This document shows positions 9,640 to 43,245 of a DNA stretch of 64,000 bases, piece by piece. The stretch comes from an uncultured Gammaproteobacteria bacterium. Lineage in GTDB: Bacteria; Patescibacteriota; Patescibacteriia; UBA2591; UBA6264. Below the pieces are notes generated by a model that saw only the letters and a program-made list of their open reading frames with translations, was not told the DNA's origin and did no database searches. Position numbers and translations under genes: made by a program. The first letter of the stretch is position 1. Each line of letters starts with the position of its first letter. The DNA is taken from positions 18,321-82,320 of the forward strand of contig CAZQVF010000002.1 of the NCBI GenBank assembly GCA_964596735.1. The letters run 5' to 3'.

Positions 9640-10029
9640 ATGGAAAAAAAATCATTTAAAATTTTACTTATTGAAGATGACCAGTTTATTCGCCGTATTT
9701 GTAAAAACGGCCTAGAACGAAGTGGTTTTAATGTAATAACAGCTGCGGAGGGGAAAGAAGGGATGAAAAAAGCAAAAGAACAAAATCCAGATCTAATTCT
9801 CTCTGACTTAGTCATGCCCCATAGAAATGGTTTTGAAACAATGGAACAAATAAAAAAAGATAAACAATTAAAAGATATTCCAATAATTATTCTTTCTAAT
9901 TTGGGTCAAGAATCAGATATTCAAAAAATAAAAGAGTTGGGAGCCGTCGACTATTTAATTAAGTCTGATTTTAAAATAAAAGAAGTGGTAGAGAAAATAA
10001 AATCCCATTTGGCTAAATTAGAAAAATAA
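9640..10029 (+). CDS. Stand-alone response-regulator receiver domain protein (CheY-like), paralog of 12865-13245
   Basis: Receiver signature: acidic pair EDD, phospho-acceptor in LILSDLVMP, conserved T/S and K (IIILSNLG ... YLIKS); 129 aa, no output domain. Confidence 0.85.
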   Translation: MEKKSFKILLIEDDQFIRRICKNGLERSGFNVITAAEGKEGMKKAKEQNPDLILSDLVMPHRNGFETMEQIKKDKQLKDIPIIILSNLGQESDIQKIKELGAVDYLIKSDFKIKEVVEKIKSHLAKLEK

Positions 10030-10044
10030 AAGGAGGAATAAAAT

Positions 10045-12423
10045 ATGTTTTTAAAATATTTTAAAAAAATAAAACTTAACCTAACAACTAAATTTGTTGT
10101 TTTGTTCTTGGCTATTTCTCTGGTTCCCTTGATTATTGCTGTTTATATCAGTTATGACAGTTCGCGAAAAGTTTTAGAAGAAGAAGCCGCTTATCAGCTT
10201 TATCAAATTTCTGATAATAAAGTCAATCAAATTGATAAATATTTTTCAGAAGCAAAAAAAGATGTCACTGCTTTAGCGCGCATGCCTGGTGTTATCGGTT
10301 CTGTGGAAAAATTTAATCAGGCTTTTCAAGAACATCAAGTAAATTCTTTAGAATATCTTGCCATTGATAAAGAATTAAGACCTGCTTTATTATATTTTCA
10401 AGAGGCATCTAAGTATGATGATCTCTTTTTAATTTCCTCTGAAGGAAATTTAACTTTTTCTACTAGTCAAAAACATGCTTTAGGAACAAATTATCTTACT
10501 GATTTAAAGGCCAATTCTGATTTAACACCCATTCTTAAAAGTACCATTGCTTTATTAGAAACAAAAATATCAACCTTTAAGCTGATTAAGGGCGGTAAGA
10601 TTAGAGCTTATATCACATCTCCTGTGTCTAATGAAGGAAAATTTATTGGGGTGATCGGAGTTCAAGTTAATAATGAAGGAATCTATAATCTCACTGAAGA
10701 TTATGCTGGTTTAGGAAAAACAGGAGAAATTATTTTAGTCGCCAGATTAGAAGATCAAATAATTTTTATTGCTCCATCAAGATATGACCCAGAAGGAGCA
10801 TTTAAAACAAATGTTGAATTAGGGGCTCATCAAGGGATTGCCCTTCAAAAGGCAGTGCAAAGAGAAAAAAGTTGGGGAATAACCACTGATTACAAAGGAG
10901 AAAAGGTTTTAGCTACTTGGCGCTATCTACCTAATTATCAATGGGGCTTGGTAGTAAAAATGAATGCCGATGAAATATTAAAAACAGCTAATGAGCTAAA
11001 AGACCGGTTAGTCGTTATTGGGACAGTACTCTTAATAATGATTGTTTTGATTACGGTTGTGATGGCTCGTTCTGTTTCCGGGCCAATTAAAAAATTAACT
11101 AAAGTAGCAGCGACAATTTCTAAGGGTAATCTTTTGGCTCGGGCAAGAATAAACACAAAAGATGAAATTGAAGAATTGGCTAATTCTTTTAATCAAATGA
11201 CTGACAATCTTTTAAAAACCCAGAGTAGATTAGAAGACAAAAGTGAACAATTAGCTAGAAATCTTGGGCAGATAGAAAGACAAAACAAAGAGCTGGAAGA
11301 AGAAAAGAATAAGGTTGGTCAGGAAAAAGATAAATTAAATACTATTCTTTATGGGATTGGTGATGGTGTCTTTGTTGTTGATCCAGATTACAAGATTATG
11401 ATTTTTAATCAAGAAGCAGAAGTTATTTCTGGGGTTACATCTAAGGAGGCTGTTGGCAAGAGATATGATCAGATTCTTAATTTTATTTCTGAAAGAAACG
11501 GAAAATCAAATGGTAGATTTGTTCGAGAAGCAATAAGCAGTGGGGAGATTAAAGAAACCAGTTTTGATACTGTTTTGGTTAAAAAAGGCAAGAAAAATAT
11601 TCCGGTTTCCGGAAGTGCCGCTCCCTTAAAAGATTCTGATGGTAATGTAATAAGTTGTGTGGTTGTTTTTCGTGATGTGTCCAAAGAAAGGGAAATTGAT
11701 CGGGCCAAAACTGAATTTGTTTCCCTGGCTTCTCATCAATTAAGAACACCCCTTTCTACTGTCAGCTGGTATGCAGAAATGCTTTTAGATGAAGACGTGG
11801 GGAAAATCAACAAAGACCAAGAAAAATATTTACAAGCGCTTTATGATGCTAATCACCGCATGGTGGAATTAGTCAATGCTCTTTTAAATGTTTCTCGGAT
11901 TGAATTAGGAACTTTTGCTATTGACCCTGAGCCGATTAAATTTCTTGAAATTGCTGATAGTGTTATAAAAGAACAAACTCCACAAATTAAAGAAAAAGGA
12001 TTAAAAATTGAAAAAAAATATGCTGTTGATTTGCCCATTATTAATGCTGACCCTCGACTTTTAAGAATTATTTTACAAAATCTGATTTCCAATGCTGTTA
12101 AATATACTCCGGAAAAGGGAAGTATTGTTATTGAAATTAGTAAAAAGGATTTAGATATTTTAGTTAAAGTAAAGGATACTGGTTATGGTATTCCCAAGAC
12201 TCAACAATCAAAAATATTTAATAAGCTGTTCCGGGCTGATAATATTTTGGCTAAAGATTGTGATGGCACTGGTCTTGGCCTTTATATTGTCAAGGCTGTG
12301 GTTGAGCAGTCAGGCGGCAAAATCTGGTTTGAATCTGAAGAAAATAAAGGAACCACTTTCTTTACCACTATTCCTTTAATAGGAATGAAAAAGAAAAAAG
12401 GAGTCAAAGTTTTAGCTAGTTAA
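10045..12423 (+). CDS. Sensor histidine kinase with a large (~280 aa) extracytoplasmic sensor domain (Cache-like), HAMP, PAS, HisKA and HATPase_c
   Basis: TM1 about aa 14-36 and TM2 about aa 318-338. H-box FVSLASHQLRTPL, N-box ISNAVKYTP, G-boxes DTGYGIP and GTGLGLYIVK. Confidence 0.85.
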   Translation: MFLKYFKKIKLNLTTKFVVLFLAISLVPLIIAVYISYDSSRKVLEEEAAYQLYQISDNKVNQIDKYFSEAKKDVTALARMPGVIGSVEKFNQAFQEHQVNSLEYLAIDKELRPALLYFQEASKYDDLFLISSEGNLTFSTSQKHALGTNYLTDLKANSDLTPILKSTIALLETKISTFKLIKGGKIRAYITSPVSNEGKFIGVIGVQVNNEGIYNLTEDYAGLGKTGEIILVARLEDQIIFIAPSRYDPEGAFKTNVELGAHQGIALQKAVQREKSWGITTDYKGEKVLATWRYLPNYQWGLVVKMNADEILKTANELKDRLVVIGTVLLIMIVLITVVMARSVSGPIKKLTKVAATISKGNLLARARINTKDEIEELANSFNQMTDNLLKTQSRLEDKSEQLARNLGQIERQNKELEEEKNKVGQEKDKLNTILYGIGDGVFVVDPDYKIMIFNQEAEVISGVTSKEAVGKRYDQILNFISERNGKSNGRFVREAISSGEIKETSFDTVLVKKGKKNIPVSGSAAPLKDSDGNVISCVVVFRDVSKEREIDRAKTEFVSLASHQLRTPLSTVSWYAEMLLDEDVGKINKDQEKYLQALYDANHRMVELVNALLNVSRIELGTFAIDPEPIKFLEIADSVIKEQTPQIKEKGLKIEKKYAVDLPIINADPRLLRIILQNLISNAVKYTPEKGSIVIEISKKDLDILVKVKDTGYGIPKTQQSKIFNKLFRADNILAKDCDGTGLGLYIVKAVVEQSGGKIWFESEENKGTTFFTTIPLIGMKKKKGVKVLAS

Positions 12424-12460
12424 TTGTATAAATAATAATGTAATTTAATTATATAAACAT

Positions 12461-12850
12461 ATGTCAACACAAAACAAAAAAGTCCTTATTGTTGAGGACG
12501 AAAAAGCTATGCGACAAGTTATTTTTGACAAATTCGAACGTGAAGGTTTCCAAACCTTTCAAGGAAAAGACGGAGAAGAAGGCTTAAAGATTGCTTTAAA
12601 AGAGCATCCTGATATTATTCTTTTAGACATTATCATGCCTCGAGTTGATGGTTTAAGTATGCTTAAAAAATTAAGAAAAGATAAGTGGGGAAAAAATGCG
12701 CAGGTGCTTCTTCTTACTAATTTAAATGATGCTGAGTATGTGGCCACGGCTATGGAAAGTGGAGTTTTTGATTTTTTAGTTAAAAGTGATTGGAAGCTTG
12801 ATGATTTGGTTGTAAGGGTCAAAGAAAAACTAGGAATTGTTCAAAAATAA
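12461..12850 (+). CDS. Stand-alone response-regulator receiver domain protein
   Basis: VLIVEDE ... ILLDIIMP ... LLLTNL ... FLVKS receiver pattern; 129 aa. Confidence 0.85.
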   Translation: MSTQNKKVLIVEDEKAMRQVIFDKFEREGFQTFQGKDGEEGLKIALKEHPDIILLDIIMPRVDGLSMLKKLRKDKWGKNAQVLLLTNLNDAEYVATAMESGVFDFLVKSDWKLDDLVVRVKEKLGIVQK

Positions 12851-12864
12851 TATAATTATTAAAT

Positions 12865-13245
12865 ATGGCTGAAGAAAAAAAAGTTAAAATTGCTTTAGTT
12901 GAGGATGAAAGGTTTTTATTAGGGGCGATGAGGGATAAACTGCAAAGAGAGGGCTTTGATGTTTATACAGCGACTAATGGTGAAATTGGATTGGAGGTAA
13001 TTAAGAAAGAAAAACCGGCTTTGATTTTACTAGATTTAATTATGCCGATAAAAAGTGGTTTTGATGTTTTAGAAGAATTGCAAAAAGATAGTGAATTAAA
13101 AAATATTCCTGTCATTATTCTTACTAATTTGGGTCAAGAATCAGATATTCAAAAAGGTAAAGAATTGGGAGCAGCAGACTATTTAATCAAAGCTGATTTT
13201 AAAATGAAAGAGGTTATTGCCAAGGTAAGGGAACATCTTAAATAA
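12865..13245 (+). CDS. Stand-alone response-regulator receiver domain protein, paralog of 9640-10029
   Basis: Receiver pattern. The C-terminal ~35 aa are nearly identical to the first receiver (NLGQESDIQK.KELGA.DYLIK.DFK.KEV), with ~85% identity over ~100 nt at the DNA level. Confidence 0.85.
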   Translation: MAEEKKVKIALVEDERFLLGAMRDKLQREGFDVYTATNGEIGLEVIKKEKPALILLDLIMPIKSGFDVLEELQKDSELKNIPVIILTNLGQESDIQKGKELGAADYLIKADFKMKEVIAKVREHLK

Positions 13246-13264: not shown

Positions 13265-14974
13265 ATGGAAATTCCTTTGGAAAAATTAAAAGAACTTTTG
13301 GTTTCACCAGGTCATATTCCTGAGAAGGAATTTAATGATTCTGTTAAAAAAGCTAAGGAAGAAAACACTTCTTTGCAAAATTTTTTAGTAGAAAAAGGTT
13401 TAATCTCAGATAAAAATTTAGGAAAGACTATTGCTGAACATTTTGATTATCACTTTGTTGATCTTAAAAAAGAAGAGATTTCTGAAGAAATTCTAAGAAT
13501 AGTTCCTGAATTAGTCGCTCGCATGCAAGAAGTGATTGCTTTTGATAGAGGCAAAGATGGTTTTAAAATAGCCATGGCCAATCCAAATAACTATGAGATG
13601 GTTAAATGGTTGGAAAAAAAGACCGGAGAGAAGGTCAGGGTATATTACGCTACTTCTTTTGGAATTCAAGATTCTTTAAAGTTTTATCGCAAAAAAATAA
13701 CAGAAGAATTTGATGATATTATTAAAACTCAGGTTAAAGAAGCAAAAAGATTAAATGTGAAAGCAGAAGACATTCCCATTATTAAAATTGTTGATACTTT
13801 AGTTGAATATGCTTATGAAAACGGGACCTCAGATATTCACATTGAACCATTAGATGAAAAAACTCAGGTTAGGTTTAGGATTGACGGAGTTTTACACAAT
13901 GTTGTCAGTTTACCAAGAGATATTCATGGTTTAGTTGTTACTCGCATTAAGGTTTTAAGTCGACTCCGCACAGATGAACATTTTGCCGCTCAAGATGGAA
14001 AATTTCAGGTTGAATTAGAAGCTTTAACTGGCTTTAGAAGAAAACAAGATAAATTTGATATCAGAGTTTCCATTGTCCCAGTCACTGATGGAGAAAAAAT
14101 AGTGATGCGACTTTTGTCAGAAAAAGCCCGTCGCTTTACCTTAAAAGGATTGGGTTTTCGTCCTCAAGATCATAAAAAAATTAAAAACACTATTAAAAAA
14201 CCTTATGGTATGGTTTTATCTACTGGACCAACCGGTTGTGGTAAAACCACTAGTCTTTATGCTATTTTAAAGATTTTAAATAAACCAAGTGTAAATATTA
14301 CTACAATTGAAGATCCTGTTGAATATGACGTTGAAGGAATTAGTCAGATTCAAGTTAACACTAAAACTGGTTTGACTTTTGCCAAGGGTTTACGTTCAAT
14401 TGTTAGACAAGATCCAGATATTATTATGGTTGGAGAAATTCGTGACGAAGAAACAGCTGATATTGCTATTAATTCAGCCATGACTGGTCACTTAGTTCTC
14501 TCTACAATGCATGCTAATACAGCGGCAACTAATTTAGTTCGTTTAATAGATATGGGCGTAGAACCGTTCTTGGTTGCTTCTTCAATTAATGTTGTTTTTG
14601 GCCAAAGGTTGGTAAGAAAAATCTGTGAAAAATGCCGATATAGCTATGAGGTTAATCGCCAAGAATTAAAAAAACTTAATCTTTCCTCAAAATTAATTGA
14701 TAAAATCCTTGGTAAAAAACAAAAAATCAGAGTTTATAAAGGTGAGGGTTGTCGAGCCTGTAATGAAAGCGGATATACTGGTCGAATCGGGATTTTTGAA
14801 ATTTTAGAAATTAGTGACACCCTTAAACAAATGATTATGCGTCGAGCCAATGCTGATGAACTTGAAGGTCAAGCCATTAAAGAAGGGATGCACTCAATGA
14901 TGGAAGATGGAATTGAAAAAGTACTTACGGGAATTACCACTATTGATGAGGTATTAAGGGTGACCAGAGAATAG
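13265..14974 (+). CDS. pilB: Type IV pilus assembly ATPase PilB (GspE family)
   Basis: N-terminal T2SS-E N domain, Walker A STGPTGCGKTT, Asp box, His box, tetracysteine zinc motif (CEKC ... CRAC). Confidence 0.9.
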   Translation: MEIPLEKLKELLVSPGHIPEKEFNDSVKKAKEENTSLQNFLVEKGLISDKNLGKTIAEHFDYHFVDLKKEEISEEILRIVPELVARMQEVIAFDRGKDGFKIAMANPNNYEMVKWLEKKTGEKVRVYYATSFGIQDSLKFYRKKITEEFDDIIKTQVKEAKRLNVKAEDIPIIKIVDTLVEYAYENGTSDIHIEPLDEKTQVRFRIDGVLHNVVSLPRDIHGLVVTRIKVLSRLRTDEHFAAQDGKFQVELEALTGFRRKQDKFDIRVSIVPVTDGEKIVMRLLSEKARRFTLKGLGFRPQDHKKIKNTIKKPYGMVLSTGPTGCGKTTSLYAILKILNKPSVNITTIEDPVEYDVEGISQIQVNTKTGLTFAKGLRSIVRQDPDIIMVGEIRDEETADIAINSAMTGHLVLSTMHANTAATNLVRLIDMGVEPFLVASSINVVFGQRLVRKICEKCRYSYEVNRQELKKLNLSSKLIDKILGKKQKIRVYKGEGCRACNESGYTGRIGIFEILEISDTLKQMIMRRANADELEGQAIKEGMHSMMEDGIEKVLTGITTIDEVLRVTRE

Positions 14975-14999: not shown

Positions 15000-16046
15000 A
15001 TGTTAAAAAAAATAAGTACTATTGATAAAGTTTTTCTTGCTAATAATATTTCTGTTATGATTAAGGCCGGCTTGCCTTTAAGAGAAGCGGTAGCTACATT
15101 GCAGGAACAAACTAAATCTAAAGTATTTAAAAAAATTCTTGAGGATATTATTAAACATCTTGATAATGGAGAATCTTTAGCAGATAGTTTAGCTAGACAT
15201 CCTCGAGATTTTAATCAGCTTTTTATTAATATTATTAGAGTAGGGGAAGCGAGTGGAACTTTAGAGGAAAACTTAAAATACCTGGCCATTCAATTAGAAA
15301 AAAGTTATGATCTTCATCGAAAAGTAAAAGGGGCGATGATTTATCCCTTACTTGTTTTGACTAGTACTTTTGTTTTAGGATCAGCTTTGGCTGTCTTTAT
15401 TTTGCCTAAACTTTTACCTCTTTTTAAAAGTTTTGATGTACAACTGCCCTTGCCTACAAAAGTCTTAATCTGGGTGACAGAGGCAATTCAAAATCATGGA
15501 CTGTTAATCTTTGGTGGTTTAATTGGTCTTATTATTTTATTTACCTTCCTTTCCCGTTTAAAACCAGTTAAAAAAATTAATCATAAAATCCTTTTAAGAA
15601 CCCCTTTATTTGGTCGAATCTCCCGCAGTAATAACCTAGCTCAATTCTGTCGTACCTTAGGGATCTTGTTAAAAAGTGGCATTCCTGTAGTACAAGGACT
15701 GGAAATTACTTCTCAAACCTTAAAAAACATGAGTTATAAAAAAGCTTTAGTTGAAACCTCTGATAAAGTACAAAGAGGAAAACCCATTAGTGATCATTTA
15801 AAAAATGAGGGCTTTCTTTTCCCAGTCACTGTCTCTAAGATGATTCAGGTAGGAGAAAAAACTGGCAGTTTAGAAGAAACCTTGCTTCATTTAGCAGGAT
15901 TTTATGAAAAAGAAATTGATAATGTGACTAAGAATCTTTCCAACATCTTAGAACCTATCTTATTAATCGTTATCGGTTTGGTGGTTGGTTTTATTGCCAT
16001 TGCTATTATTCTGCCGATTTACAAATTAACCGGCGGATTTAGATAA
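15000..16046 (+). CDS. pilC: Type IV pilus inner-membrane platform protein PilC (GspF family)
   Basis: Two GspF repeats, each with the conserved helical segment followed by TM helices. Confidence 0.85.
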   Translation: MLKKISTIDKVFLANNISVMIKAGLPLREAVATLQEQTKSKVFKKILEDIIKHLDNGESLADSLARHPRDFNQLFINIIRVGEASGTLEENLKYLAIQLEKSYDLHRKVKGAMIYPLLVLTSTFVLGSALAVFILPKLLPLFKSFDVQLPLPTKVLIWVTEAIQNHGLLIFGGLIGLIILFTFLSRLKPVKKINHKILLRTPLFGRISRSNNLAQFCRTLGILLKSGIPVVQGLEITSQTLKNMSYKKALVETSDKVQRGKPISDHLKNEGFLFPVTVSKMIQVGEKTGSLEETLLHLAGFYEKEIDNVTKNLSNILEPILLIVIGLVVGFIAIAIILPIYKLTGGFR

Positions 16047-16053
16047 AATAAGT

Positions 16054-16500
16054 ATGTTTAAAAAAGGCTTTACTCTTGTTGAGATAATACTAGCTATTAC
16101 TATTATTATTTTCCTTGCTGGCTTGGTTGTGCCCACGGGTATACGTTTTTATCAAACCCAACAATTAGACACAGCGACTGATGGAATTATTCAGGCTTTA
16201 AGAAGAGCCCAATTAAAAGCCATGTCTCAAGGAGATAATAATTTTGGTGTTTATGTTGGCTCTGGTCAAACCGGTCAATATTTTTTATTTACAGGTAATT
16301 CTTATGAAAATAGAACTGACGAAGAAATTTTCGGGGCTAGCAATAATATTTCGTTCAGTGGTGTTTCAGAAGTATTATTTTCTAAAACACAAGGTAAGCC
16401 AACTATTACTGGAACAGGTGACGATATTGTTTTAACCCAAGGTACAGAAACAAAAACAATTAACATTAATGAAGCGGGTAGAATTAATTTTGAATTATAA
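16054..16500 (+). CDS. Prepilin-like protein (type IV pilin / pseudopilin), class III signal peptide
   Basis: N-terminus MFKKGFTLVEIILAITIII. The G|FTLVE cleavage and N-methylation motif is followed by a hydrophobic helix. Confidence 0.7.
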   Translation: MFKKGFTLVEIILAITIIIFLAGLVVPTGIRFYQTQQLDTATDGIIQALRRAQLKAMSQGDNNFGVYVGSGQTGQYFLFTGNSYENRTDEEIFGASNNISFSGVSEVLFSKTQGKPTITGTGDDIVLTQGTETKTININEAGRINFEL

Positions 16501-16503
16501 GTT

Positions 16504-19326
16504 ATGAAACATCAAAAAGCTCAAAGCTTAATTGAATTATTAATCGCCCTTGGCGTTTTTGTTTTGGTTGTCAGTTCGATTAATTTTTTAAGTCTTGATA
16601 CATATATAGCTGATCGAGCTGGTGGAGAAAGAACCCAAGCCACTTTTTTGGCTAAAGAGGGGATTGAAGCAAGTAAATCTATTAGCAACAACAGCTGGGG
16701 TGATTTAATCTTGGGCAATCATGGAATTAGTATCTCTGATGAACATTGGGTTTTTCAAGGAACGGCCGATGATGTTAGCGATCAATTAACTCAAGGAGAG
16801 CGGGTTATTGTTGTTGAACAAGACGAAGCTTGTAATCTAAATTGTAAAAAAATTACCTCTCAGGTGACCTGGGATTTAACAGACACTCGTCCCCAAACCG
16901 TAACCTTGGTCACTTATTTAACTAATTTGTTTAGTCTCAATTGGACCCAGACGCTTTTAGCAGACTTTGATTTAGGAAAGAGAAACAGTGTTCAGACCAC
17001 TGAGGTGGGTGATGGGGAGATAAAGTTATCCTTGATCGGCGACTGGAACAATGCCTCTGTTGTTGCCGACTTTGATACAGATGCTAATGGTGATGTCCGG
17101 GATATTTTTATTAATAATAATATTGCCTATGTTATTACCATGAATAATGGTGGTGGCGGTGAAGAAGAATTTTTTGTTTTAGATATTTCTGATATTAGTA
17201 ATGGAAATATTAATTTGTTAGGATCAACTGATTTGGGAACAGAATTAGGTAATGATGCTCGTAGTTTTCATGTTTCTGAAGATTATGCCTATATTGCCAG
17301 TGATGATAATAATGCCGAATTAATGATTGTTCGTTTAAGTGATTATACTGTAACTAATCAGTACAATGTTCCAGACAATCTTAATGGCCTTGATGTTTTT
17401 GTTGTTGATGATATTGCTTATTTAGTGACTAATGTAAATAATTCTGAAGAATTCTATGTCTTGGATGTTTCTAATCCTGAAGAAGAGATTACTCTGTTAA
17501 ATTCATTAGAAGTTGACGCCACTGTTAATAAAATTGATGTTGTGGGTAATTATGCTTATTTAGCCACTGAAGGTAATAATAAAGAATTATCAGTTGTTCG
17601 TTTAACAGATAATACTGAAGTAAATACTTTTGATATTACTGGTAATGGTGATATGACTTCTGTTCAGGTTATTGGCGATATCGCTTATATGGGGAGGGAA
17701 AGCAGTGGTGACTCAGAGTTTTATGCCTTGGATGTTTCTAACCCAGAAGGAGTAATTACTGAACTTGATTCAATTGATTTAGAAGGCGATGATGTTGAAA
17801 CAATTTCTATTTATAATGATTTGGCTTATTTGGGGACTGATAATGCAGACAAAGAAGTGGTCGTCATTGATTTAAATACTTTTATAGAAACAGCTTCTGT
17901 TGATTTAATCGGCTCAAATTATGCTTATGCGATTTGGTTTCAAGGCGCTCATATTTATGCCGGAACAACAAATAATGATTATGAAGTTCAAGTGATTCAA
18001 AGTGGCCAAGGCGGTTGGGAAGTCCCAGAAATGATTGGTAGCATTGATCTTCCCGGGAACGAGGATGCTAAAGATGTTTTTGTTTTAGGTGATTATGCTT
18101 ACATCGGGACTAAACCAGCTAGACACGGTGACAATTTTTTCATCATTGACATTTCAGACCCGGAAAATCCTGATCCAAGAGGTTCTCTTGATATAGGAAA
18201 GGATATTCATGGTGTTTATATCTCTGGCAACTATGCTTATCTGTCCTTGCATGATGATGATGAAGGATTAAGAATTGTTGATATTACCAATAAGGACAAT
18301 CCTATTAAACTTGATTATTTTAATGCCCCAGGAGACAAGTGTTTTAAAGATGTTTCTGTTTTAGATGATTATGCCTATATCGTAGGAAAAGAGGCAAGAA
18401 ACGATCCAGAATTTTTCATCATTGATGTTGAAGAGCCGGACGATTTAGAAGACGAGGCTGAAGGAAGTTTAGAGCTGGACACTGAGGCTTATGCCATATA
18501 TGTCTCAGGAGATTATGCTTATTTAGCCACTAGTGATAATGATAAAGAATTAATGGTGGTTGATATTTCAGATGAGGAAGAACCAGAGATGGTTGGTTCA
18601 TACAATGCTGATAGCGATGCTAATGCGAGGGATATTTTTATTGAAAATGACACTGCTTATTTAGTGACTAAAGAAAACTCTTCTGCAGGGATAAATCCTG
18701 AATTCTATATTTTAGATATTAGCACACCAACGGTTCCTAGTTTAATAGGTTCTTTAGACATAGATGACAACGTTGATACTCTCACTGTTTCAGGAGATTA
18801 TGCTTATTTGGGAACAGATGAGAATGATGCTGGGCTTCAAATAATCGATATTAGTGATTTAGCCAATCCTTTGCTTTATAGTACTTTTGATGTTGGTGAT
18901 GATGTTAAGGGTATTGATTTTGATGAGGGTCATGTTTATTTGGCCACTAAAAATGGTGATTTAGAGGCGCCAATTATTGGTCCAGGCGGATTACCAACTG
19001 ATTATTCTCAATGGGGCATTTTCACTTCTTCTTCTTATGATTCTGGGGAAACAAATACTTCATGGAATAATATCTTATGGTCAGAAAGTGGGACCGGTAC
19101 TTTAAAATTCCAGGTGCGCACTGCCGATACTGAAGAAAATCTTTCTTCGGCTACCTGGGTTGGATCAGACGGGACTAATTCAACTTATTATACTTTTTCT
19201 GAACAAAACATTATTATTGATCCTGGAGCCAGTGGTAAACAATGGGCTGAATATCGAGTATTTTTTACTGGTGACAGTACAGACAGTCCTATCTTAGAAA
19301 GTATAACTATTATTTATAGCAACTAA
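16504..19326 (+). CDS. Giant (940 aa) pilin-like protein: prepilin-type N-terminus followed by about 14 LVIVD-type beta-propeller repeats and a C-terminal beta-sandwich-like domain
   Basis: N-terminus MKHQKAQSLIELLIALGVFVLVV. Repeated ~40-55 aa units of the form V.GDYAYLAT..ND.EL.VVDISDP..P. Very acidic (D/E-rich) composition. Confidence 0.75.
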   Translation: MKHQKAQSLIELLIALGVFVLVVSSINFLSLDTYIADRAGGERTQATFLAKEGIEASKSISNNSWGDLILGNHGISISDEHWVFQGTADDVSDQLTQGERVIVVEQDEACNLNCKKITSQVTWDLTDTRPQTVTLVTYLTNLFSLNWTQTLLADFDLGKRNSVQTTEVGDGEIKLSLIGDWNNASVVADFDTDANGDVRDIFINNNIAYVITMNNGGGGEEEFFVLDISDISNGNINLLGSTDLGTELGNDARSFHVSEDYAYIASDDNNAELMIVRLSDYTVTNQYNVPDNLNGLDVFVVDDIAYLVTNVNNSEEFYVLDVSNPEEEITLLNSLEVDATVNKIDVVGNYAYLATEGNNKELSVVRLTDNTEVNTFDITGNGDMTSVQVIGDIAYMGRESSGDSEFYALDVSNPEGVITELDSIDLEGDDVETISIYNDLAYLGTDNADKEVVVIDLNTFIETASVDLIGSNYAYAIWFQGAHIYAGTTNNDYEVQVIQSGQGGWEVPEMIGSIDLPGNEDAKDVFVLGDYAYIGTKPARHGDNFFIIDISDPENPDPRGSLDIGKDIHGVYISGNYAYLSLHDDDEGLRIVDITNKDNPIKLDYFNAPGDKCFKDVSVLDDYAYIVGKEARNDPEFFIIDVEEPDDLEDEAEGSLELDTEAYAIYVSGDYAYLATSDNDKELMVVDISDEEEPEMVGSYNADSDANARDIFIENDTAYLVTKENSSAGINPEFYILDISTPTVPSLIGSLDIDDNVDTLTVSGDYAYLGTDENDAGLQIIDISDLANPLLYSTFDVGDDVKGIDFDEGHVYLATKNGDLEAPIIGPGGLPTDYSQWGIFTSSSYDSGETNTSWNNILWSESGTGTLKFQVRTADTEENLSSATWVGSDGTNSTYYTFSEQNIIIDPGASGKQWAEYRVFFTGDSTDSPILESITIIYSN

Positions 19327-19838
19327 TGATTTACAAAAAGAAAAAAAGTTTTACGTTAATTGAACTGCTTATTTATCTTGGCATAGTGGCCGGGATTTTA
19401 GTTGTGGCTGGTGCTTTTACCTGGAGTATTATTAAAGGAAGCGCAAAAGGCGCTTGTGTTCGAGAGGTGCAACAAAATGGACGTTTGGCCATGGAAGTAA
19501 TTACTCGAGAGATAAAGGCCGCTTCTGGAATTAATAGTCCTTTAGCTGGAGAATCAGCCGAGACCTTGTCTTTGATTATGTCTGACAGTGGTTTAAATCC
19601 AACTATATTTGAATTATCAAATGATCAGATTCTTTTAAGTCAGGGGGTGGATGGACCCTATACTTTAACTACTGATCAGGTTTTGGTTTCTAATCTTGAT
19701 TTTACTAATCTTTCCTACGCAGATACATCTGGAACAGTCAGAATAGAAATGACCTTAGATTATAATAATCTTGGTTCTCAAACCGCTTATGAGGCTTCGA
19801 TTGATTTAAGTACCACGGTTTCTTTAACTGAGGAATAA
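19326..19838 (+). CDS. Prepilin-like minor pilin/pseudopilin
   Basis: N-terminus KSFTLIELLIYLGIVAGILVV (class III signal peptide). Confidence 0.65.
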   Translation: MIYKKKKSFTLIELLIYLGIVAGILVVAGAFTWSIIKGSAKGACVREVQQNGRLAMEVITREIKAASGINSPLAGESAETLSLIMSDSGLNPTIFELSNDQILLSQGVDGPYTLTTDQVLVSNLDFTNLSYADTSGTVRIEMTLDYNNLGSQTAYEASIDLSTTVSLTEE

Positions 19839-19841
19839 AAC

Positions 19842-20237
19842 ATGAAACATCAACAAGCATATATTGCCTTAATTACCATTTTAATCATCTCTGCCGTAAC
19901 CTTATTAATTGCGGCTAGTGCTGGTCTTTTTGGTATTTCTGAAACAGACATGGGTCTAATCGAAGATCAATCTACTCAGTCTTATTATTTGGCTAATGCC
20001 TGTGCTGAATATGCCTTGGAAAGGTTAAAGAATAATGTAAATTATGCTGGTGACGAAACCTTAGATATTGATGATGGCAGTTGCTATATTTATTTACCAG
20101 AAGGAAGTGGCAATGAGGATAGAATAATTAAAGCAACCGGCACTCTTGCTAATCAGACTAGAAAGGTTAAAATTATAATAGAAGAGATTAATCCTTTAAT
20201 GGTCATTAGCTCTTGGCAAGAGGTTTCTGAATTTTAG
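19842..20237 (+). CDS. Putative minor pilin (PilX-like) with atypical N-terminal hydrophobic helix
   Basis: MKHQQAYIALITILIISAVTLLIAAS lacks the canonical G-F-T-L-I-E but sits within the pilin gene run. Confidence 0.4.
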   Translation: MKHQQAYIALITILIISAVTLLIAASAGLFGISETDMGLIEDQSTQSYYLANACAEYALERLKNNVNYAGDETLDIDDGSCYIYLPEGSGNEDRIIKATGTLANQTRKVKIIIEEINPLMVISSWQEVSEF

Positions 20238-20254: not shown

Positions 20255-22012
20255 ATGGGTAAATTTTCAAAAACAGGTTTTGGCTTAGATATCTCTGATT
20301 TTTCAATCGAGGTTCTTGAGCTTAGTTCAAAAGTAAAAGTAAAAACTTTTTCTAGAATAACCCTAGAGCCAGGCATAATTGAAAATGGTCTTATTCTTGA
20401 TAAGAAAAAATTAACTAAAAAACTCAAAGAACTTGTTGCTAAAACAAAAATAAAAACAAGTCAGGTTGTTTTATCTTTACCAGAATCAAAGGTTTTTATT
20501 CATGTTTTTAAGGTTCCTAAGGGATTAAAAAAGACTAATTTAAAAGATGCCATTGCCTTTGAGGCGCCTAAAGTCATTCCTTTAAACCAGGAAGAAATAT
20601 ATTGGGACTGTCAGACAATTTCCTCTCCAGCAAAATCAGCTCAACAATCTGTTTTATACATCGCTGTTTTTAAAAATATTATTGATACCTATATTGAAGT
20701 TTTAACCTTGGCTGAGTTAAAACCAGTTGTTTTTGAGATAGAATCATTGGCTTTGGCTCGGGCTTTATTGTTAGAATTAAAACCAGTTAACAGTTTGATG
20801 ATTGTTGATTTAGGGGCTCGAACAACTAATATTAGTATTTTTGGTAAAAACAAACAATTAAGATGGTCTTCAACAGTTTCTGTTGCTGGCAAGCATTTTA
20901 CTCAGGCAATTGAGGAAAAATTAAAAAAATCTACAGAACAGGCAGAAAAATTAAAAAGAGATAAGGGCTTGTCAGATAAAAGCATTGTTAAGCTTATTTT
21001 AGAGAAAGAACTTAAACCGATTATTGAGGAAATAAAAAATATTCTTGATTTTTATAATGAACCAGTAGACGAAATTATTTTAAGCGGGGGTTCAGCTCAA
21101 ATACCAGAAATTGTCTCTTATCTTTCTACTAAACTTGAGAAAAAGGTTAGTCTGGGCAAATCAGTAATTACCAAACAATTAAAAGGAACTTCTATTCTTT
21201 ATAACACGGTTATTGGCTTAGCCCTTAAGTCGCGTCAGGGGGCCAAAAAAGGAGAAATTAATTTATTACCTCAAAAAATTAAAACCAAAAAATCTTTTAT
21301 TAATAAAGAAACGCAGGAAAGCAGGCTTTTTCAAATATTTGGTTATGTTTTTCCCTTAGCCTCTATAGTCTTTCTTGGTTGGGTGATTATTAATTACACA
21401 CCCCAACAACCACGTTTCTCAAATATTGCCCAGAAAATTTTTATAAACGAAGAGGTTGTTCCTGAAGAAAAAGAATCAGAACCAGTTAAAGCGATTAAAG
21501 AAGAAACAATAAGTGAAGAAATGGTGGTTGAACAAGAACCAGTTTCTGAAGAAGTAGTAGAAGAAATGGTGGTTGAACAAAAAAAAACCACCCAGATTAT
21601 TATTAATCAAGGGATTAGCCGTTTAAATGTAAGAAAAGGTCCTGGATCTGAATATGATATTGTGACCAAGGTTTATCCTGGAGAGAGTTATCCACTATTG
21701 CAAGAACAAGGGGAATGGTATAAAATAAGGGTAGATGAGGATACAGAGGGATGGCTTTCTGCCACTTATACAACTTTACAAGAAAAGACCACTTTATTAG
21801 AAGAGAAAATTGGTCAAATTACTGTCAAAGAAAGTGTTTTAAATGGATTAAATCTTCGTGATGGTCCAGGAACAAATTATACTATTATTACCAAGGTTTA
21901 TCCTGGAACAAATTATCTACTATTGCAAGAACAAGGAGAATGGTATAAAATAAGGGTAGATGAGGATACAGAGGGATGGCTTTCTGCCACTTATGTTTTA
22001 AAATTAGAATAA
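20255..22012 (+). CDS. pilM: Fusion protein: PilM (actin-like pilus assembly ATPase fold), a PilN-like TM segment, an acidic linker and two tandem SH3b (bacterial SH3) domains
   Basis: N-terminal ~330 aa has the PilM/FtsA-like fold and its position in the locus. There is a TM helix at about aa 360-380. Two C-terminal ~60-aa repeats (RLNVRKGPGSEYDIVTKVYPGESYPLLQEQGEWYKIRVDEDTEGWLSATY) are typical of SH3_3. Confidence 0.7.
   Translation: MGKFSKTGFGLDISDFSIEVLELSSKVKVKTFSRITLEPGIIENGLILDKKKLTKKLKELVAKTKIKTSQVVLSLPESKVFIHVFKVPKGLKKTNLKDAIAFEAPKVIPLNQEEIYWDCQTISSPAKSAQQSVLYIAVFKNIIDTYIEVLTLAELKPVVFEIESLALARALLLELKPVNSLMIVDLGARTTNISIFGKNKQLRWSSTVSVAGKHFTQAIEEKLKKSTEQAEKLKRDKGLSDKSIVKLILEKELKPIIEEIKNILDFYNEPVDEIILSGGSAQIPEIVSYLSTKLEKKVSLGKSVITKQLKGTSILYNTVIGLALKSRQGAKKGEINLLPQKIKTKKSFINKETQESRLFQIFGYVFPLASIVFLGWVIINYTPQQPRFSNIAQKIFINEEVVPEEKESEPVKAIKEETISEEMVVEQEPVSEEVVEEMVVEQKKTTQIIINQGISRLNVRKGPGSEYDIVTKVYPGESYPLLQEQGEWYKIRVDEDTEGWLSATYTTLQEKTTLLEEKIGQITVKESVLNGLNLRDGPGTNYTIITKVYPGTNYLLLQEQGEWYKIRVDEDTEGWLSATYVLKLE
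21665..21994 (+). repeat. Intragenic direct repeat: about 105 nt at 21665-21769 repeated at 21890-21994. The core 78 nt is 76/78 identical and encodes the duplicated SH3b domain
   Basis: Read directly: ACCAAGGTTTATCCTGGA...CTATTGCAAGAACAAGG(G/A)GAATGGTATAAAATAAGGGTAGATGAGGATACAGAGGGATGGCTTTCTGCCACTTAT occurs twice. Confidence 0.85.
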
Positions 22013-22037: not shown

Positions 22038-22499
22038 ATGATTAGATCACGTAAAGGTTTTACTCTCATTGAAATTCTCATTGCCGTCGGGATTATTGCA
22101 ATTTTAGCCGCTATCGTTATTATTGCTATTAACCCAGCTCGTCAGTTTCAAAGAGCGAGAGATTCTCAACGATGGAGTGATGTTAACGCTATTCTTAATG
22201 GTGTTCACCAAAGAATGGTTGACAACAAAGGAAGTTTTGCTGAAGGCACCACCTGTGATGCCCTGCCAGCTACGGTCATGTCTATTACTAGTACAGCTGG
22301 AGCAAACAATGTTGATCTCTGTGATTGTTTGGTAACAACTTATTTAGCCGCTCTTCCTTTTGACCCTTCAACTTCTGGAGCAGGTTTTACTGATTGCAAT
22401 GGCTATACAACTGGTTATACTATTATGCAGGCCGCCACGGGTAGAATTACCGTTGCCGCTCCTGGAGATGAGTTAGATACGATTACAGTAACCCGGTAA
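22038..22499 (+). CDS. pilA: Type IV major pilin (PilA-like), with Cys residues for a C-terminal disulfide
   Basis: N-terminus MIRSRKGFTLIEILIAVGIIAILAAI. About 150 aa. Cys-containing C-terminal region and a strong terminator immediately downstream. Confidence 0.75.
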   Translation: MIRSRKGFTLIEILIAVGIIAILAAIVIIAINPARQFQRARDSQRWSDVNAILNGVHQRMVDNKGSFAEGTTCDALPATVMSITSTAGANNVDLCDCLVTTYLAALPFDPSTSGAGFTDCNGYTTGYTIMQAATGRITVAAPGDELDTITVTR

Positions 22500-23900: not shown

Positions 23901-25196
23901 ATGAAAACAAGAATAGTTAATCTTAGGTCAGATCAGCAAAAAGGGTTGAAAGATGTTAATCCTCAGAAATTTCTGTCTGTTTTTGTTATCTCTGCTATAA
24001 GTATTTTTATTTTTATTCTTGTTAGCGGTTTAATTATTGGTCAAAAAAATCCAAATCAATTATTAGCCAGCTCAGCCATGGCTGATTTTATAAAAAAAGA
24101 CACTTCTCCTCAATTCACTATTAAGGAACATGTTATTGAATCAGGAGAAGTTTTTATTAAACTAAACACGGCCTTGGGATTAAGTGAAGAACAATTGCAA
24201 AAAATTCTTAATGCTTCAGAAAATACTTATAGTTTAGTAGAAATTAGAGCCGGAAACAAAATTCGCTCTTTCTTTAATATAACCACTAATGAATTTGAAA
24301 AATTAGAATATGAAATTAATCAAGATAATATCCTAATTGTAGAAAAATTAGAAACCGGGGAATTAAAAGCAGAAAAAAGAGTAGTTGTTTATGAAATTAA
24401 ATTAACCCAGGTTTCTGCCGAAGTTAAAGAAAGTCTTTATCAAACCGGACAAAGCATAGGATTAGCGGATAAAACTATTATGGAAATGGCTGATATTTTT
24501 GCCTGGGATATTGATTTTGGTTTTGATATAAGAGAGGGTGATGAATTTGAACTCTTATATGAAAAAAGGTATTTAGACGGCCAAGAAGTTAATCCGGGAA
24601 AAATCTTAATTGCTCGTTTTCAAAATCAAGAAGAAGATCATTGGGGTGTTTATTACAAAGACTTTGAAGACAGAGAAGACTATTATGATCTAGAGGGCAG
24701 TTGTTTAAGAAGACAGTTTTTAAAAGCTCCGATTAATTACCGCTATATTAGCTCTGGTTATAGCTTAAGCCGTTATCATCCTGTTTGGCATACATATACT
24801 ACTCATCGGGCCATTGATTACGCTGCTTCTTGTGGCACGCCTGTTTCTGCCTCAGGAGCCGGAACTGTTATTCTGGCTGGCTGGAAAAACAATGTTTATG
24901 GATATACAGTAGAAATTCGCCATAATGGTGTCTATACTACTCGTTATGGACATTTATCTGCTTTTGGCAAAGGAATTAGATATGGAGCCAAGGTAACTCA
25001 AGGTCAAATAATCGGTTTTGTGGGAACAACTGGCACATCAACAGGCTGTCATTTAGATTATTCCATGAAAAAATATGGCAGCTTTGTTAATCCTTTAACT
25101 CAGAATTTTGAACGTTCAGATCCAGTTAAAGAAACTTATAAAGAAGATTTTGAATTTAATAAGACCATATTGATTGATTTTCTGGCTGGGGATTAA
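23901..25196 (+). CDS. Membrane-anchored M23 family metallopeptidase (LytM-like)
   Basis: N-terminal TM helix. C-terminal M23 motifs HRAIDYAA ... GTVILAG ... GHLDYSM (HxxxD ... HxH). Confidence 0.8.
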   Translation: MKTRIVNLRSDQQKGLKDVNPQKFLSVFVISAISIFIFILVSGLIIGQKNPNQLLASSAMADFIKKDTSPQFTIKEHVIESGEVFIKLNTALGLSEEQLQKILNASENTYSLVEIRAGNKIRSFFNITTNEFEKLEYEINQDNILIVEKLETGELKAEKRVVVYEIKLTQVSAEVKESLYQTGQSIGLADKTIMEMADIFAWDIDFGFDIREGDEFELLYEKRYLDGQEVNPGKILIARFQNQEEDHWGVYYKDFEDREDYYDLEGSCLRRQFLKAPINYRYISSGYSLSRYHPVWHTYTTHRAIDYAASCGTPVSASGAGTVILAGWKNNVYGYTVEIRHNGVYTTRYGHLSAFGKGIRYGAKVTQGQIIGFVGTTGTSTGCHLDYSMKKYGSFVNPLTQNFERSDPVKETYKEDFEFNKTILIDFLAGD

Positions 25197-31131: not shown

Positions 31132-32370
31132 TTATAACAGATAATCCTTAGGATTAACAGGAATACCATCTAATCTTACCTCAAAATGTAAATGTGGTCC
31201 AGTGGAGAAACTACCCGCCCCTGTCGTTCCTGGTAATCCGCCGGTTCGGCCAATAATACTGCCTCTTTTAATATATTCGTCTTCTTCAACAAAGATTTCA
31301 CTAACATGTCCATAAACAGTGGAAAAAGATTCATTATGAATGATCATGATATAGCTATAACCTAGGCCACCATGCTTTGCCCTGGCCACATAGCCAGAAG
31401 CCGGCGCTCTTATAGCTGTTCCCTGGGGGGCTCTTAAATCAATACCTGAATGCTCACCAATCCAATGGCGATAAGGATAGTCTGGATCATGAAATTCAGA
31501 GGTAATTCCTTCTAACGGGACTGGCCAGGAAAAGATAATAATCCCCTCTTTTTCCATTAACTCTGCTTTTTGTTCTTTTTCTTGGGCTATTTTTCTTCTG
31601 ACATCGCTTTCCAACTGAACTATTTCATTTTCAACTTCTTGTTTTTCCTTAACCACTTCTGCTAAAAGAGCTTGAAATTTCCATTCTGCTCCTTGGGTTT
31701 CTTCTAAAATAGTTTTCTTGGCTTGTTGCTCTGAAGCTAATTTTGCTTTTTTGTCTTTAAGTTCTGATTCTAAATCAATTAATTGTTGGAGTTGTAAACG
31801 TAGATCTTTTTCTTGTATTTCCAAGCCTTCTTTGATTAAATCCATTCTTTGTAAAGAACGAGCTAATTCTGACTGAACAGTGTTTAAATAGCGTAAATGA
31901 CTTAAAATATCTGAAATAGAATCATTGAGAAGAATTATTTCTAAATGATTTTTATGATCGTATTGATTAATGGTTTGTAAAAATTCTTTTAAATCTTGTT
32001 TTAATACTTCGATTTCTTGTTTTTTTTCTAAAACTCTTAATTGAATGTTCTTAATTGAAAGATTAGTTTTGGCGATTTGTTTTTCTTTTTCTTGGATTTC
32101 TGCCTCTCTTTCTAAAACTTGATTACTTAAAAGGTATATTTGATTTTTCAAAGTAACGGCTTCTTCTCTTTTAATTTCTATTTTCTCTTGATATATTTGT
32201 TTTTGTCCTTCTAGGTCTTTTATCTCTTGTTGCTGGGCTTCAATCTGTTTTTGCATGTCTTCAATTTCTTTTGAATAATCAATCGTAAGGCTGAGACTGG
32301 GTTTGACAAATAAAAAAAATGCTAAGAAGCAGACAAATAGTAAACTAATTTTATTATAATTAAAATACAT
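31132..32370 (-). CDS. Coiled-coil M23 peptidase (EnvC-like murein hydrolase activator / LytM-domain protein)
   Basis: Signal/TM, then a long Q/E/K-rich coiled coil, then a C-terminal M23 domain (HSGIDLRAP ... GHVSEI ... GPHLHFEV). Confidence 0.8.
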   Translation of the reverse strand: MYFNYNKISLLFVCFLAFFLFVKPSLSLTIDYSKEIEDMQKQIEAQQQEIKDLEGQKQIYQEKIEIKREEAVTLKNQIYLLSNQVLEREAEIQEKEKQIAKTNLSIKNIQLRVLEKKQEIEVLKQDLKEFLQTINQYDHKNHLEIILLNDSISDILSHLRYLNTVQSELARSLQRMDLIKEGLEIQEKDLRLQLQQLIDLESELKDKKAKLASEQQAKKTILEETQGAEWKFQALLAEVVKEKQEVENEIVQLESDVRRKIAQEKEQKAELMEKEGIIIFSWPVPLEGITSEFHDPDYPYRHWIGEHSGIDLRAPQGTAIRAPASGYVARAKHGGLGYSYIMIIHNESFSTVYGHVSEIFVEEDEYIKRGSIIGRTGGLPGTTGAGSFSTGPHLHFEVRLDGIPVNPKDYLL

Positions 32371-39145: not shown

Positions 39146-40540
39146 ATGTATAGACTGCTTAAAACAGCCATTTTTTTATTACCCATAGCCCTAATCATTG
39201 TTTGGCCATTAAATGTTCATGCTCAGGAGCCTGTTTTTGATCCTGAGTATGTTATTTCTGATTATGAGTTGACCAACCATCAAACCATGACCATGAATGA
39301 AATTCAAAGATTTTTAGAAGAAAAAGAAGGGGCTTTGGCTAATTATTCAGCAGTTGACATAGACGGTAAAATGAAAACTGCGGCTGAGATAATTTATCGG
39401 GCTAGTCAAGAGTATGAGATTAATCCTCAACATTTAATTACCCTGTTACAAAGAGAAAAAAGCCTGATTACAAAAAAATCACCCTCTAATGATGATTATA
39501 ATTGGGCGACTGGATTTAGTTGTTATGACTATCGCAGTCCAGTTTCAAGATTTCGTGGTTTTTCACTCCAAGTAGATCGAGCTGCTTGGCGTTTTCGTTA
39601 TTATCTAGAACATCCTTGGCAATTCCAATTTAAAGTAGGAAGTAAAGGAAAAACTCTGGTTGACTGGAATGACAAATGGTTGGTTAATATTCATGGCCGC
39701 TATATTACGGCAAAAAATGCGGCCACCGCCGGCCTTTATAATTATGCTCCTCATGTTTATGATAATTGGCTTTTTTGGACAATTTGGCAAAACTGGTTTG
39801 GTAATGGAGATCAAAAATTTGCTGAGGGCACATTAATAAGAATTGGAGATGAACAAGGGGTCTGGTTAATCCAAAATAGTCAGCGTCGACCTTTTTATTC
39901 AGAAAACGTCTTTTTATTAAGCTATAGATTTAAAAACGTTAAAATAGTTGAAAAAATTGATTTAATAGATTATCCAATTGGGCCAGTCATGACCTTCCCA
40001 AATTACTCTTTGGTTCAATCATCTTTAGGGGAAATGTTTATGTTGGTTAATAACAAGAAAAGGTCTATTTCTGAAAAAATCTTTAAAAACATTGGTTTTC
40101 ACCCAGACGAAATTATTGAGGTCAATGAAAATGATTTAAATACCTATGAAATAGGAGCTCCTATTCTCTCTCCTTATCCTAATGGAGCTCTTTTGCAAGA
40201 CAATGAAACAAAGGCTGTTTATTATGTTAAAGAAAACATTAAATATCCAATTATTGATATAAGCATTTTAAATGCTAATTTTCCTTACAGTCATATTTCC
40301 AAGGTTGATCCTCAAGAGTTAGCTGAATTTGCCATGGGTGATCAAGTTAAATTTAGGGATGGTACTTTAATTAAGACGTTTGACTCCCCGGCTGTTTATG
40401 TTATTAGTCAACAAAAGCGCTTGCCTATTCCTTCAGCTGAAGTTTTTGAAACAATTGGTTATCAATGGAACAGTGTTGTTGAAGTTGACAAATCCTTTTT
40501 AAACATGCATGATTTAGGGGAAGTTTTAAAAATTGATTAA
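39146..40540 (+). CDS. Secreted hypothetical protein. It has a signal peptide and an N-terminal module resembling cell-wall hydrolase or binding N-domains (EYEINPQHLITLLQREKSL). Three C-terminal ~60-aa repeats follow
   Basis: Signal peptide with AQE cleavage region; repeated pattern G.L......VY.I.....R.I.S..VF...GY....V..V. Confidence 0.55.
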   Translation: MYRLLKTAIFLLPIALIIVWPLNVHAQEPVFDPEYVISDYELTNHQTMTMNEIQRFLEEKEGALANYSAVDIDGKMKTAAEIIYRASQEYEINPQHLITLLQREKSLITKKSPSNDDYNWATGFSCYDYRSPVSRFRGFSLQVDRAAWRFRYYLEHPWQFQFKVGSKGKTLVDWNDKWLVNIHGRYITAKNAATAGLYNYAPHVYDNWLFWTIWQNWFGNGDQKFAEGTLIRIGDEQGVWLIQNSQRRPFYSENVFLLSYRFKNVKIVEKIDLIDYPIGPVMTFPNYSLVQSSLGEMFMLVNNKKRSISEKIFKNIGFHPDEIIEVNENDLNTYEIGAPILSPYPNGALLQDNETKAVYYVKENIKYPIIDISILNANFPYSHISKVDPQELAEFAMGDQVKFRDGTLIKTFDSPAVYVISQQKRLPIPSAEVFETIGYQWNSVVEVDKSFLNMHDLGEVLKID

Positions 40541-41976: not shown

Positions 41977-43245
41977 TTATTTTGTTTTCCAGTGGTCCAA
42001 GGCTTGTTTTAGTTCAATATGGTTATGAGAATAAAACTTTAAAGGAATTCCTTTGGTGGCCGCTTCTACGGCTTGAACAGCGGCTCTGGCTCCGGCCCCA
42101 CTTCCTTGAGGATGTCCGTGCAAACCACCGCCAAAATTAATAACTAGGTTTGTTCCTAAAATTTCAACTAATTTATAGGCTAAGCCGGGATGAAGTCCGC
42201 CTGAAGCAATGGGCAAAACAGGTTTAAGCTTGCCCCAGTTTTCTCTTAGTTTATTAAATCCTCGCCAGTCTTCTTTTAATAATTCATTTACTTGAACAAC
42301 TTCTTTTTCTTCTCCTTCCATTTTTCCCACCACTGTGCCTGTATGAAACTGATCAATACCAGCTAAGCGAGCTAAATTGGCTACGACTAAAAAGGAAATG
42401 CCATGTTTTTTATTTCTAGTAAAAGCAGAATGACCAGCTCTATGCCCGTGAATAATCAAGCCCAAGTCTTGGTTTCTCAAAGACTGGACTCCGGCCCAAC
42501 CAGTAGTAACAATATCAACCATAACACATCTGCCCCCTAATCTTTTAACTAATTTTGCTCTTTGCAGCATTAGCTCTGTTGGCGCGGTCACATTAAATAC
42601 ATAAATCTTTTTTTGTTTTGTTTCTTTTTCTACTTGTTTTTTAAGGGCTAAAACCTTTTTGACCCTGTCTTCAAATTTATTAAAACTCAGGTCGGTTAAA
42701 TTTTCATCATCTTTGATTAAATCAACTCCGTTTTTAAATATTTCTGCGGCTAATTTAGCGTTTTGAGTTGAAGTTAAGCCTATTTTGGGTTTTATAATAC
42801 AGCCAACCAAGGGCCTTCTTTTTATTCCGGTAATCCTTCTTATTCCATTAATCCCCCATTTTGGTCCTGGATATTGGTTAATATATTTTTCAGGAAATTC
42901 AATGTCTTGCAAACGTAAATTCTTAACTAATTTCATGCTAAAAATATTTCCCCCAATGCTAGAAAGAAGCTGAGGAATACTATTTGGTTCAAACAAGGCT
43001 AAGGGGTAAGCAATTTTAAAAATACCTGTTCTGGTGTTAACTGAAAAAACCTTTGCCGCTAATTTATTAAAGACTTTGTCTGATAAGGTTTTTACTTTTG
43101 TCCAGGTGCCAATTGAAGATTCTTCAGCTACTTTTTGGGCTAATTTATTTAAAGATAACTTAGATTCCCCATAATAAGTGACGATAATCTCTTCTTGGGG
43201 TTTTGGCTTATATTTTAGCCTTAAATAGGTTGATTTTTTTTTCAT
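41977..43245 (-). CDS. rbcL: Ribulose-1,5-bisphosphate carboxylase/oxygenase large subunit, form II/III-like (archaeal/CPR type)
   Basis: Carbamylated Lys region GVDLIKDDENL, GCIIKPKIGLT, IIHGHRAGHSAF, FGGGLHGHPQGSGAGARA. 422 aa. No small subunit gene adjacent. Confidence 0.9.
   Translation of the reverse strand: MKKKSTYLRLKYKPKPQEEIIVTYYGESKLSLNKLAQKVAEESSIGTWTKVKTLSDKVFNKLAAKVFSVNTRTGIFKIAYPLALFEPNSIPQLLSSIGGNIFSMKLVKNLRLQDIEFPEKYINQYPGPKWGINGIRRITGIKRRPLVGCIIKPKIGLTSTQNAKLAAEIFKNGVDLIKDDENLTDLSFNKFEDRVKKVLALKKQVEKETKQKKIYVFNVTAPTELMLQRAKLVKRLGGRCVMVDIVTTGWAGVQSLRNQDLGLIIHGHRAGHSAFTRNKKHGISFLVVANLARLAGIDQFHTGTVVGKMEGEEKEVVQVNELLKEDWRGFNKLRENWGKLKPVLPIASGGLHPGLAYKLVEILGTNLVINFGGGLHGHPQGSGAGARAAVQAVEAATKGIPLKFYSHNHIELKQALDHWKTK

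Follow-up and report, generated by a model that had tools for sequence, protein, structure and literature searches.

Modular pilins, as defined by Raynaud et al. 2021, combine an N-terminal pilin module with at least one module that is not specific to pilus biology. Among the 1,219 modular pilins considered by these authors, about 30 (8+8+7+4+1+1+1) carry IPR012902 followed by 1-13 copies of IPR013211, the LVIVD repeat, and an 860-residue pilin plus LVIVD protein from Candidatus Falkowbacteria was singled out. Here we describe a protein that falls under the same definition, encoded by a 940-amino acid (aa) open reading frame (ORF) at positions 16504-19326 of the forward (+) strand of a 64,000-nt stretch of DNA, referred to as the window, from a Candidate Phyla Radiation (CPR; Patescibacteria) lineage. 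Like the proteins tabulated in 2021, which are mostly from the CPR, it opens with a class III signal and continues into LVIVD repeats, and it almost certainly belongs to the same family. The pilin plus LVIVD architecture is not new, having been catalogued in that year; a first-pass annotation of the window had called the fusion unusual, which is not supported in view of the about 30 proteins already listed and the 119 recovered in the present study. The earlier entries are lines of a domain-architecture table, in which the repeat is a 'motif of unknown function' and fold, pilin class, operon slot and split sandwich are not reported. The present analysis adds that the carrier is GspI-like, that the blades are arranged as two sets of seven, that the propellers are likely inserted in a conserved sandwich domain, and that both the number of propellers and the cargo vary at a single conserved operon slot. 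These findings do not overturn what is currently accepted about type IV pili.

Several better characterised systems share parts of this design. In Streptococcus sanguinis, PilB (von Willebrand factor A domain) and PilC (lectin domain) likewise join a small pilin module to a bulky one that has no relation to pilus biology; the adhesin function of PilB is proven, and a tip location has been proposed for modular pilins (PMC8179133). Within the CPR, the minor pilin PilX2 of Nanosynbacter lyticus TM7x (Saccharibacteria) also bears a heptabladed beta-propeller, and its deletion halves host binding while filaments are not abolished (PMC11623550). Compared by description, PilX2 differs from the present protein in having one RCC1-type propeller instead of two of the LVIVD type, and in having no predicted PilD signal. 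In the type IVa pili of Pseudomonas, Neisseria and Myxococcus, the propeller-bearing tip adhesin PilY1/PilC docks on a FimU-PilV-PilW-PilX set, whereas the operon examined here has no separate PilY1 and the protein itself shows neither the C-terminal PilY1 propeller domain nor a type I signal. Among the core minor pseudopilins of type II secretion (GspI, XcpV and EpsI), GspI, in contrast to the present protein, comprises ~100 residues and carries no cargo. The large minor pilins CofB and TcpB of type IVb pili are reported to have a pilin module followed by beta-rich domains, including a beta-sandwich, to initiate assembly and to sit at the tip; they have no propellers and belong to another pilus class.

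Based on sequence, predicted structure, operon context and analogy, we consider it probable that the protein is a modular minor type IV pilin, which would join the priming complex via a GspI-like module and expose its cargo, as a binding module, at the tip of the pilus. Residues 1-143 would act as the carrier, with the signal and hydrophobic helix holding the protein in the membrane next to a small GspI/PilV-like head, and the PilB/PilC/PilM machine would assemble this carrier along with the operon's three further minor pilins. Together with them, the carrier would make up the priming complex, from which the filament starts and which comes to lie at its tip. The cargo would comprise residues 144-940, a beta-sandwich chain interrupted by two seven-bladed LVIVD propellers and displayed at the tip as a very acidic ~90 kDa binding module, most probably for attachment to the host cell surface. 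The first-pass annotation had left open a tip or a shaft adhesin; we infer the tip, since a cargo of ~90 kDa would be hard to fit along the shaft. The assignment of a binding role at the tip follows the precedents of S. sanguinis PilB, TM7x PilX2 and PilY1, and DNA is unlikely as the ligand because of the extreme acidity of the protein.

The ORF runs uninterrupted from an ATG at 16504 to a stop codon at 19324-19326, as originally annotated, and encodes on the + strand a pilin module, a putative split beta-sandwich and two LVIVD propellers. The pilin module (residues 1-143; 16504-16932) is followed by the N-terminal strands of the putative sandwich (residues 144-194; 16933-17085), propeller 1 with blades 1-7 (residues 195-518; 17086-18057), propeller 2 with blades 8-14 (residues 519-842; 18058-19029), and the C-terminal strands of the sandwich (residues 843-940 plus stop; 19030-19326). 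In Pfam, the protein scored 133.5 bits with LVIVD (PF08309; cut-off 20.2; E=1.5e-39) and matched Beta_propel (PF09826) with E=5e-11; a sequence search of the PDB with the whole protein gave no match. The LVIVD model describes a tandem unit of about 42 aa and was found in seven stretches; alignment of the repeats themselves resolved 14 units of 43-54 aa each (consensus d...i.v.gdyAYl.T..n..d.Ef.iiDisd), so the initial count of about 14 proved exact. An AlphaFold2 model of the full protein, predicted from an alignment of 38 full-length relatives, had a mean predicted local distance difference test score (pLDDT) of 89.1 and a predicted template modelling score (pTM) of 0.71. Along the chain the model contains a 60-residue helix (4-63), a small beta-sheet (71-140), five strands (145-190), 56 strands in a four-strand rhythm (198-841) and four long strands (853-939). 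The 14 repeat units coincide with the 56 predicted strands, that is, 14 four-stranded blades over residues 195-842, and in the model the repeats fold as two seven-bladed propellers. Both the profile search and the structure prediction that had been suggested as checks of the LVIVD propeller assignment thus came out in its favour.

With 174 Asp+Glu versus 42 Lys+Arg, the net charge of the protein is -132, making it the most acidic ORF in the window, with the acidity concentrated on the propellers (-52 and -57); among relatives the net charge ranges from -27 to -132. In comparisons with relatives at 67-68% overall identity, the values are 55-56% for propeller 2 and 73-76% for propeller 1, and by this measure the distal propeller is the fastest-diverging region of the protein among close relatives. 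A DTDANGD segment (residues 192-198), picked out by eye as a PilY1-like DxDxDG calcium loop, was dropped as a candidate since the motif is not kept in relatives.

The C-terminal beta-rich domain recognised in the first-pass annotation is present (strands 853-939), but the annotation missed that residues 144-194, on the far side of the propellers, probably belong with it. The domain had no Pfam or PDB sequence match, and Pfam searches across 22 members gave only isolated, non-significant matches resembling carbohydrate-binding modules (CBM). A profile of the domain found it in other large proteins with class III signals encoded just downstream of PilB in Patescibacteria genomes, which carry other modules instead of LVIVD. 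These proteins occupy the operon slot of the LVIVD pilin and include ~600-aa pilins with CarboxypepD_reg and PEGA cargo (L017:12976-14781, L019:13041-14867 and L029:13051-14847) and a 1,399-aa pilin with a BNR/Ycf48-type propeller and three copies of the sandwich domain (L005:7236-11435). In the ~600-aa proteins the domain is contiguous and is immediately preceded by a W.GG.GQ..F...G.L.L segment. A hidden Markov model (HMM) built from this contiguous version matched, with its C-terminal part, the C-terminus of every LVIVD family member (residues 832-939 of the present protein, E=5e-13), and with its N-terminal part a region upstream of the propellers in two of them (P0045 161-200, E=3e-7; P0083 163-226, E=4.5e-9). 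The N-terminal part was not detected in residues 144-194 of the present protein, which have diverged beyond the reach of the HMM but occupy the same alignment columns as those of P0045 and P0083 and have five predicted strands. Residues 144-194 and the C-terminal part therefore probably form one domain, and, because the two parts of the HMM match on either side of the propellers, the two LVIVD propellers are likely inserted into a beta-sandwich chain.

A class III signal is present in 119 of the 237 LVIVD proteins retrieved; these 119 (proteins or cluster representatives) make up the family set, and 113 of them contain the C-terminal part of the sandwich. Full-length relatives occur in Uhrbacteria, Peregrinibacteria, Gracilibacteria, Dojkabacteria, Curtissbacteria and other Patescibacteria. 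They group by length around 600, 940 and 1,250 aa, a few having 1,650-2,000 aa, and the maximal blade counts in the three main length classes are 7, 14 and 21, only these class maxima being informative since counts made with a repeat HMM built from the present protein undercount divergent blades and are lower bounds. The length classes would fit one, two and three propellers. In species-representative genomes, an LVIVD pilin was found downstream of PilB in only 3 of 80 PilB loci, which by this census makes the LVIVD cargo lineage-specific. A scan of the same genomes with the single protein yielded no confirmed relative, and the best PilB matches there were ≤48% identical, so the lineage of the window is poorly represented among them.

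The N-terminus of the protein, MKHQKA↓QSLIELLIALGVFVLVV, has a 6-residue basic leader, a Glu at +5 and 21 hydrophobic residues. This Glu (Glu11) lies within the hydrophobic stretch (QSLIE-LLIALGVFVLVVSSINF) and is invariant in 38/38 aligned relatives. In the model the helix alpha1, to residue 63, runs without a break into the head, in agreement with the lollipop fold of pilins, in which an alpha1 helix of ~50 residues packs on an antiparallel beta-sheet. Modelled alone, residues 1-143 reached a pLDDT of 92.4, and the closest folds were tip-complex pseudopilins of type II secretion; by predicted fold, the module is a GspI/PilV-like minor pilin head. A profile of the family matches solved pilins at E=9e-5, and several relatives exceed the threshold of Pfam N_methyl (PF07963). 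These features bear out the initial claim of a class III signal rather than a Sec signal, although the Ala at -1 had been overlooked and the cleavage site, given as Gly followed by Ser or Phe, is instead a candidate A↓Q. Pilins of ~270 aa whose small C-terminal domain is unrelated bear this head as well; they were found in a profile search that was non-exhaustive and did not re-list known full-length members, and on this evidence from sequence comparison the head is a reusable carrier. The ~270-aa proteins were considered as a scaffold with an uninterrupted sandwich and rejected because their C-terminal domain is unrelated. The head further contains a Cys-x3-Cys pair (EACNLNC; residues 110-114; 16831-16845), kept only in the closest relatives, which could form a small disulfide loop.

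The gene lies in a pilus operon on the + strand, between a conventional pilin and another minor pilin within a pilB-pilC-pilM locus, as had been noted at first pass. The operon encodes a PilB-type assembly ATPase with T2SSE and MshEN domains (13265-14974), a PilC-type platform protein (T2SSF; 15000-16046), a 148-aa minor pilin in slot 1 (G↓FTLVE; 16054-16500) that is weakly GspH/ComGD-like (E about 1e-5, below curated cut-offs), the present protein, a 170-aa minor pilin in slot 3 (S↓FTLIE; 19326-19838), and in slot 4 a 131-aa pilin-like ORF without Glu5 (A↓YIALI; 19842-20237; GspK E=0.028), a candidate GspK/PilX-type tip subunit. These are followed by PilM fused to two C-terminal SH3b domains (20255-22012) and a 153-aa canonical pilin (G↓FTLIE; 22038-22499; N_methyl 34 bits, TIGR02532), the probable major pilin. 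The gene for the LVIVD pilin begins 3 nt after the end of the pilin gene upstream, and the start codon of the gene that follows overlaps its stop codon. This gene order is kept around relatives of about 31% identity and in further loci, and the fusion of a pilin anchor to LVIVD propellers in a type IV pilus operon is supported. The slot-4 protein is without Glu5 in 11/11 loci compared, and PilX and GspK, modelled at the extreme pilus tip, are known to lack this residue (PMC7541494). Gene order and the Glu5-less slot 4 together are in keeping with a GspH-I-J-K-like set of minor pilins with the present protein in the putative I/PilV slot.

Further features of this operon were observed. The -1 residues of the five pilin-like ORFs between 16054 and 22499 are, in order, G, A, S, A and G, so that three minor pilins of the operon are without the canonical Gly. 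Directly upstream of pilB, a response regulator, a dCache-HAMP-PAS histidine kinase and two further single-domain response regulators are encoded (9640-13245, + strand); since this arrangement recurs in four other loci (L001, L003, L005 and L012), the conserved pilus operon seems to include sensory control. The PilM-to-SH3b fusion runs through a hydrophobic segment and an acidic linker, and the PilM homologue of L005 has 844 aa; through its SH3b domains, PilM may anchor the pilus machine to the cell wall. In the Uhrbacteria locus L001, a second, smaller PilB-PilC-pilin cluster (L001:15965-19759), including a 299-aa pilin-like ORF, lies immediately downstream of the first.

Several observations weigh against a modular minor pilin with a binding module at the tip. 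For the cargo, the split-sandwich topology rests on homology and predicted strands, the fold matches of the propellers are generic, and LVIVD repeats have no assigned function or ligand (IPR013211). The structural neighbours include the seven-bladed enzymes virginiamycin B lyase, a phosphotriesterase and hydrazine synthase beta, and these similarities, along with the absence of an assigned LVIVD function and the exceptional acidity, would also suit a tip module that is not adhesive, the propellers being an enzyme, a cation or nutrient scavenger, or a bulky cap controlling pilus dynamics. We regard this explanation as unlikely, given that searches of the protein against Pfam and NCBIfam detected no catalytic family, and that display at the surface, exchange with carbohydrate-binding-like domains in this slot, and the precedents of PilX2 and PilB all favour binding.

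For the carrier, bacterial prepilin leaders are said to end invariably in a Gly that is critical for processing (PMC4471445), whereas the residue at -1 is Ala in the present protein, and processing by a prepilin peptidase is for this reason the weakest link. N_methyl reached 18.9 bits, just below its cut-off of 21.2, and TIGR02532 did not match; the gspI, PilV and T2SSI models of Pfam and NCBIfam gave no match at E up to 1, and no prepilin peptidase gene (A24/PilD) was found in the window by either strict or loose motif searches, though PilD-like ORFs adjoin PilB in two related Patescibacteria loci (L058 and L062). An uncleaved leader ending in Ala might then serve as a signal-anchor, with the propellers borne by an ordinary membrane-tethered surface protein outside the pilus, and TM7x PilX1 and PilX2 are also without predicted PilD signals. 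This alternative appears decidedly doubtful, because the Glu at +5 is invariant, the head has a GspI fold, and the position of the gene among those of the minor pilins is constant in distant genomes. Moreover, the -1 residue is Gly in 104 of the 119 relatives with class III signals and Ala in the remaining 15, which include the three closest relatives of the protein. Ala at -1 was reportedly found by Strom and Lory in 1991 to be partly tolerated by Pseudomonas PilD.

For the machinery, the GspJ/PilW identity of slot 3 and the GspK/PilX identity of slot 4 are unconfirmed, profiles searched against PDB and Pfam having matched the generic pilin N-terminus only, and PilT is absent from the window, where PilB is the only T2SSE-type ATPase. 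A competence-type or type II secretion-like pseudopilus, in which the protein would cap a short DNA-uptake or secretion filament, draws on this single ATPase, on weak ComGD/ComGE and GspH/GspK similarities among the neighbours and on the resemblance of the head to type II secretion pseudopilins, but is very improbable, since the net charge argues against DNA binding, PilM, the canonical pilin gene and the MshEN-bearing PilB fit a type IV pilus, and PilT could be encoded outside the 64 kb.

Elsewhere in the window, a RuBisCO large-subunit gene is present on the minus strand at 41977-43245 (PF00016, E=1e-81, plus the N-terminal domain); in CPR genomes, enzymes of this kind serve nucleotide salvage. 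Downstream of the pilus operon, two M23 peptidase genes (23901-25196, + strand; 31132-32370, minus strand), one of them with a Csd3-like domain, flank cell-wall and division genes. Two ORFs on the + strand, at 39146-40540 (464 aa) and 53792-55843 (683 aa), matched no Pfam family at E up to 1e-5.

A broader proposal, which we put forward tentatively, is that the core minor pilin of the GspI/PilV type, as a rule the smallest and tip-nucleating subunit, may in Patescibacteria have been turned into a general carrier of interchangeable giant cargo that takes the role of PilY1. The cargo would include at least one, two or three LVIVD propellers in a conserved sandwich, with the fast-diverging, highly acidic distal propeller possibly acting as a host-range determinant that sets to which host cell an episymbiont can attach. 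In the ultra-small CPR bacteria, a single minor pilin with a propeller, TM7x PilX2, has to date been linked to host binding. The pilin plus LVIVD family provides defined and widespread candidates for host binding in uncultivated lineages, with a clear boundary between carrier and cargo, and with a cargo that lends itself to separate expression for binding assays. Differences in propeller number and the exchange of cargo within one operon slot suggest a place to seek determinants of host specificity.

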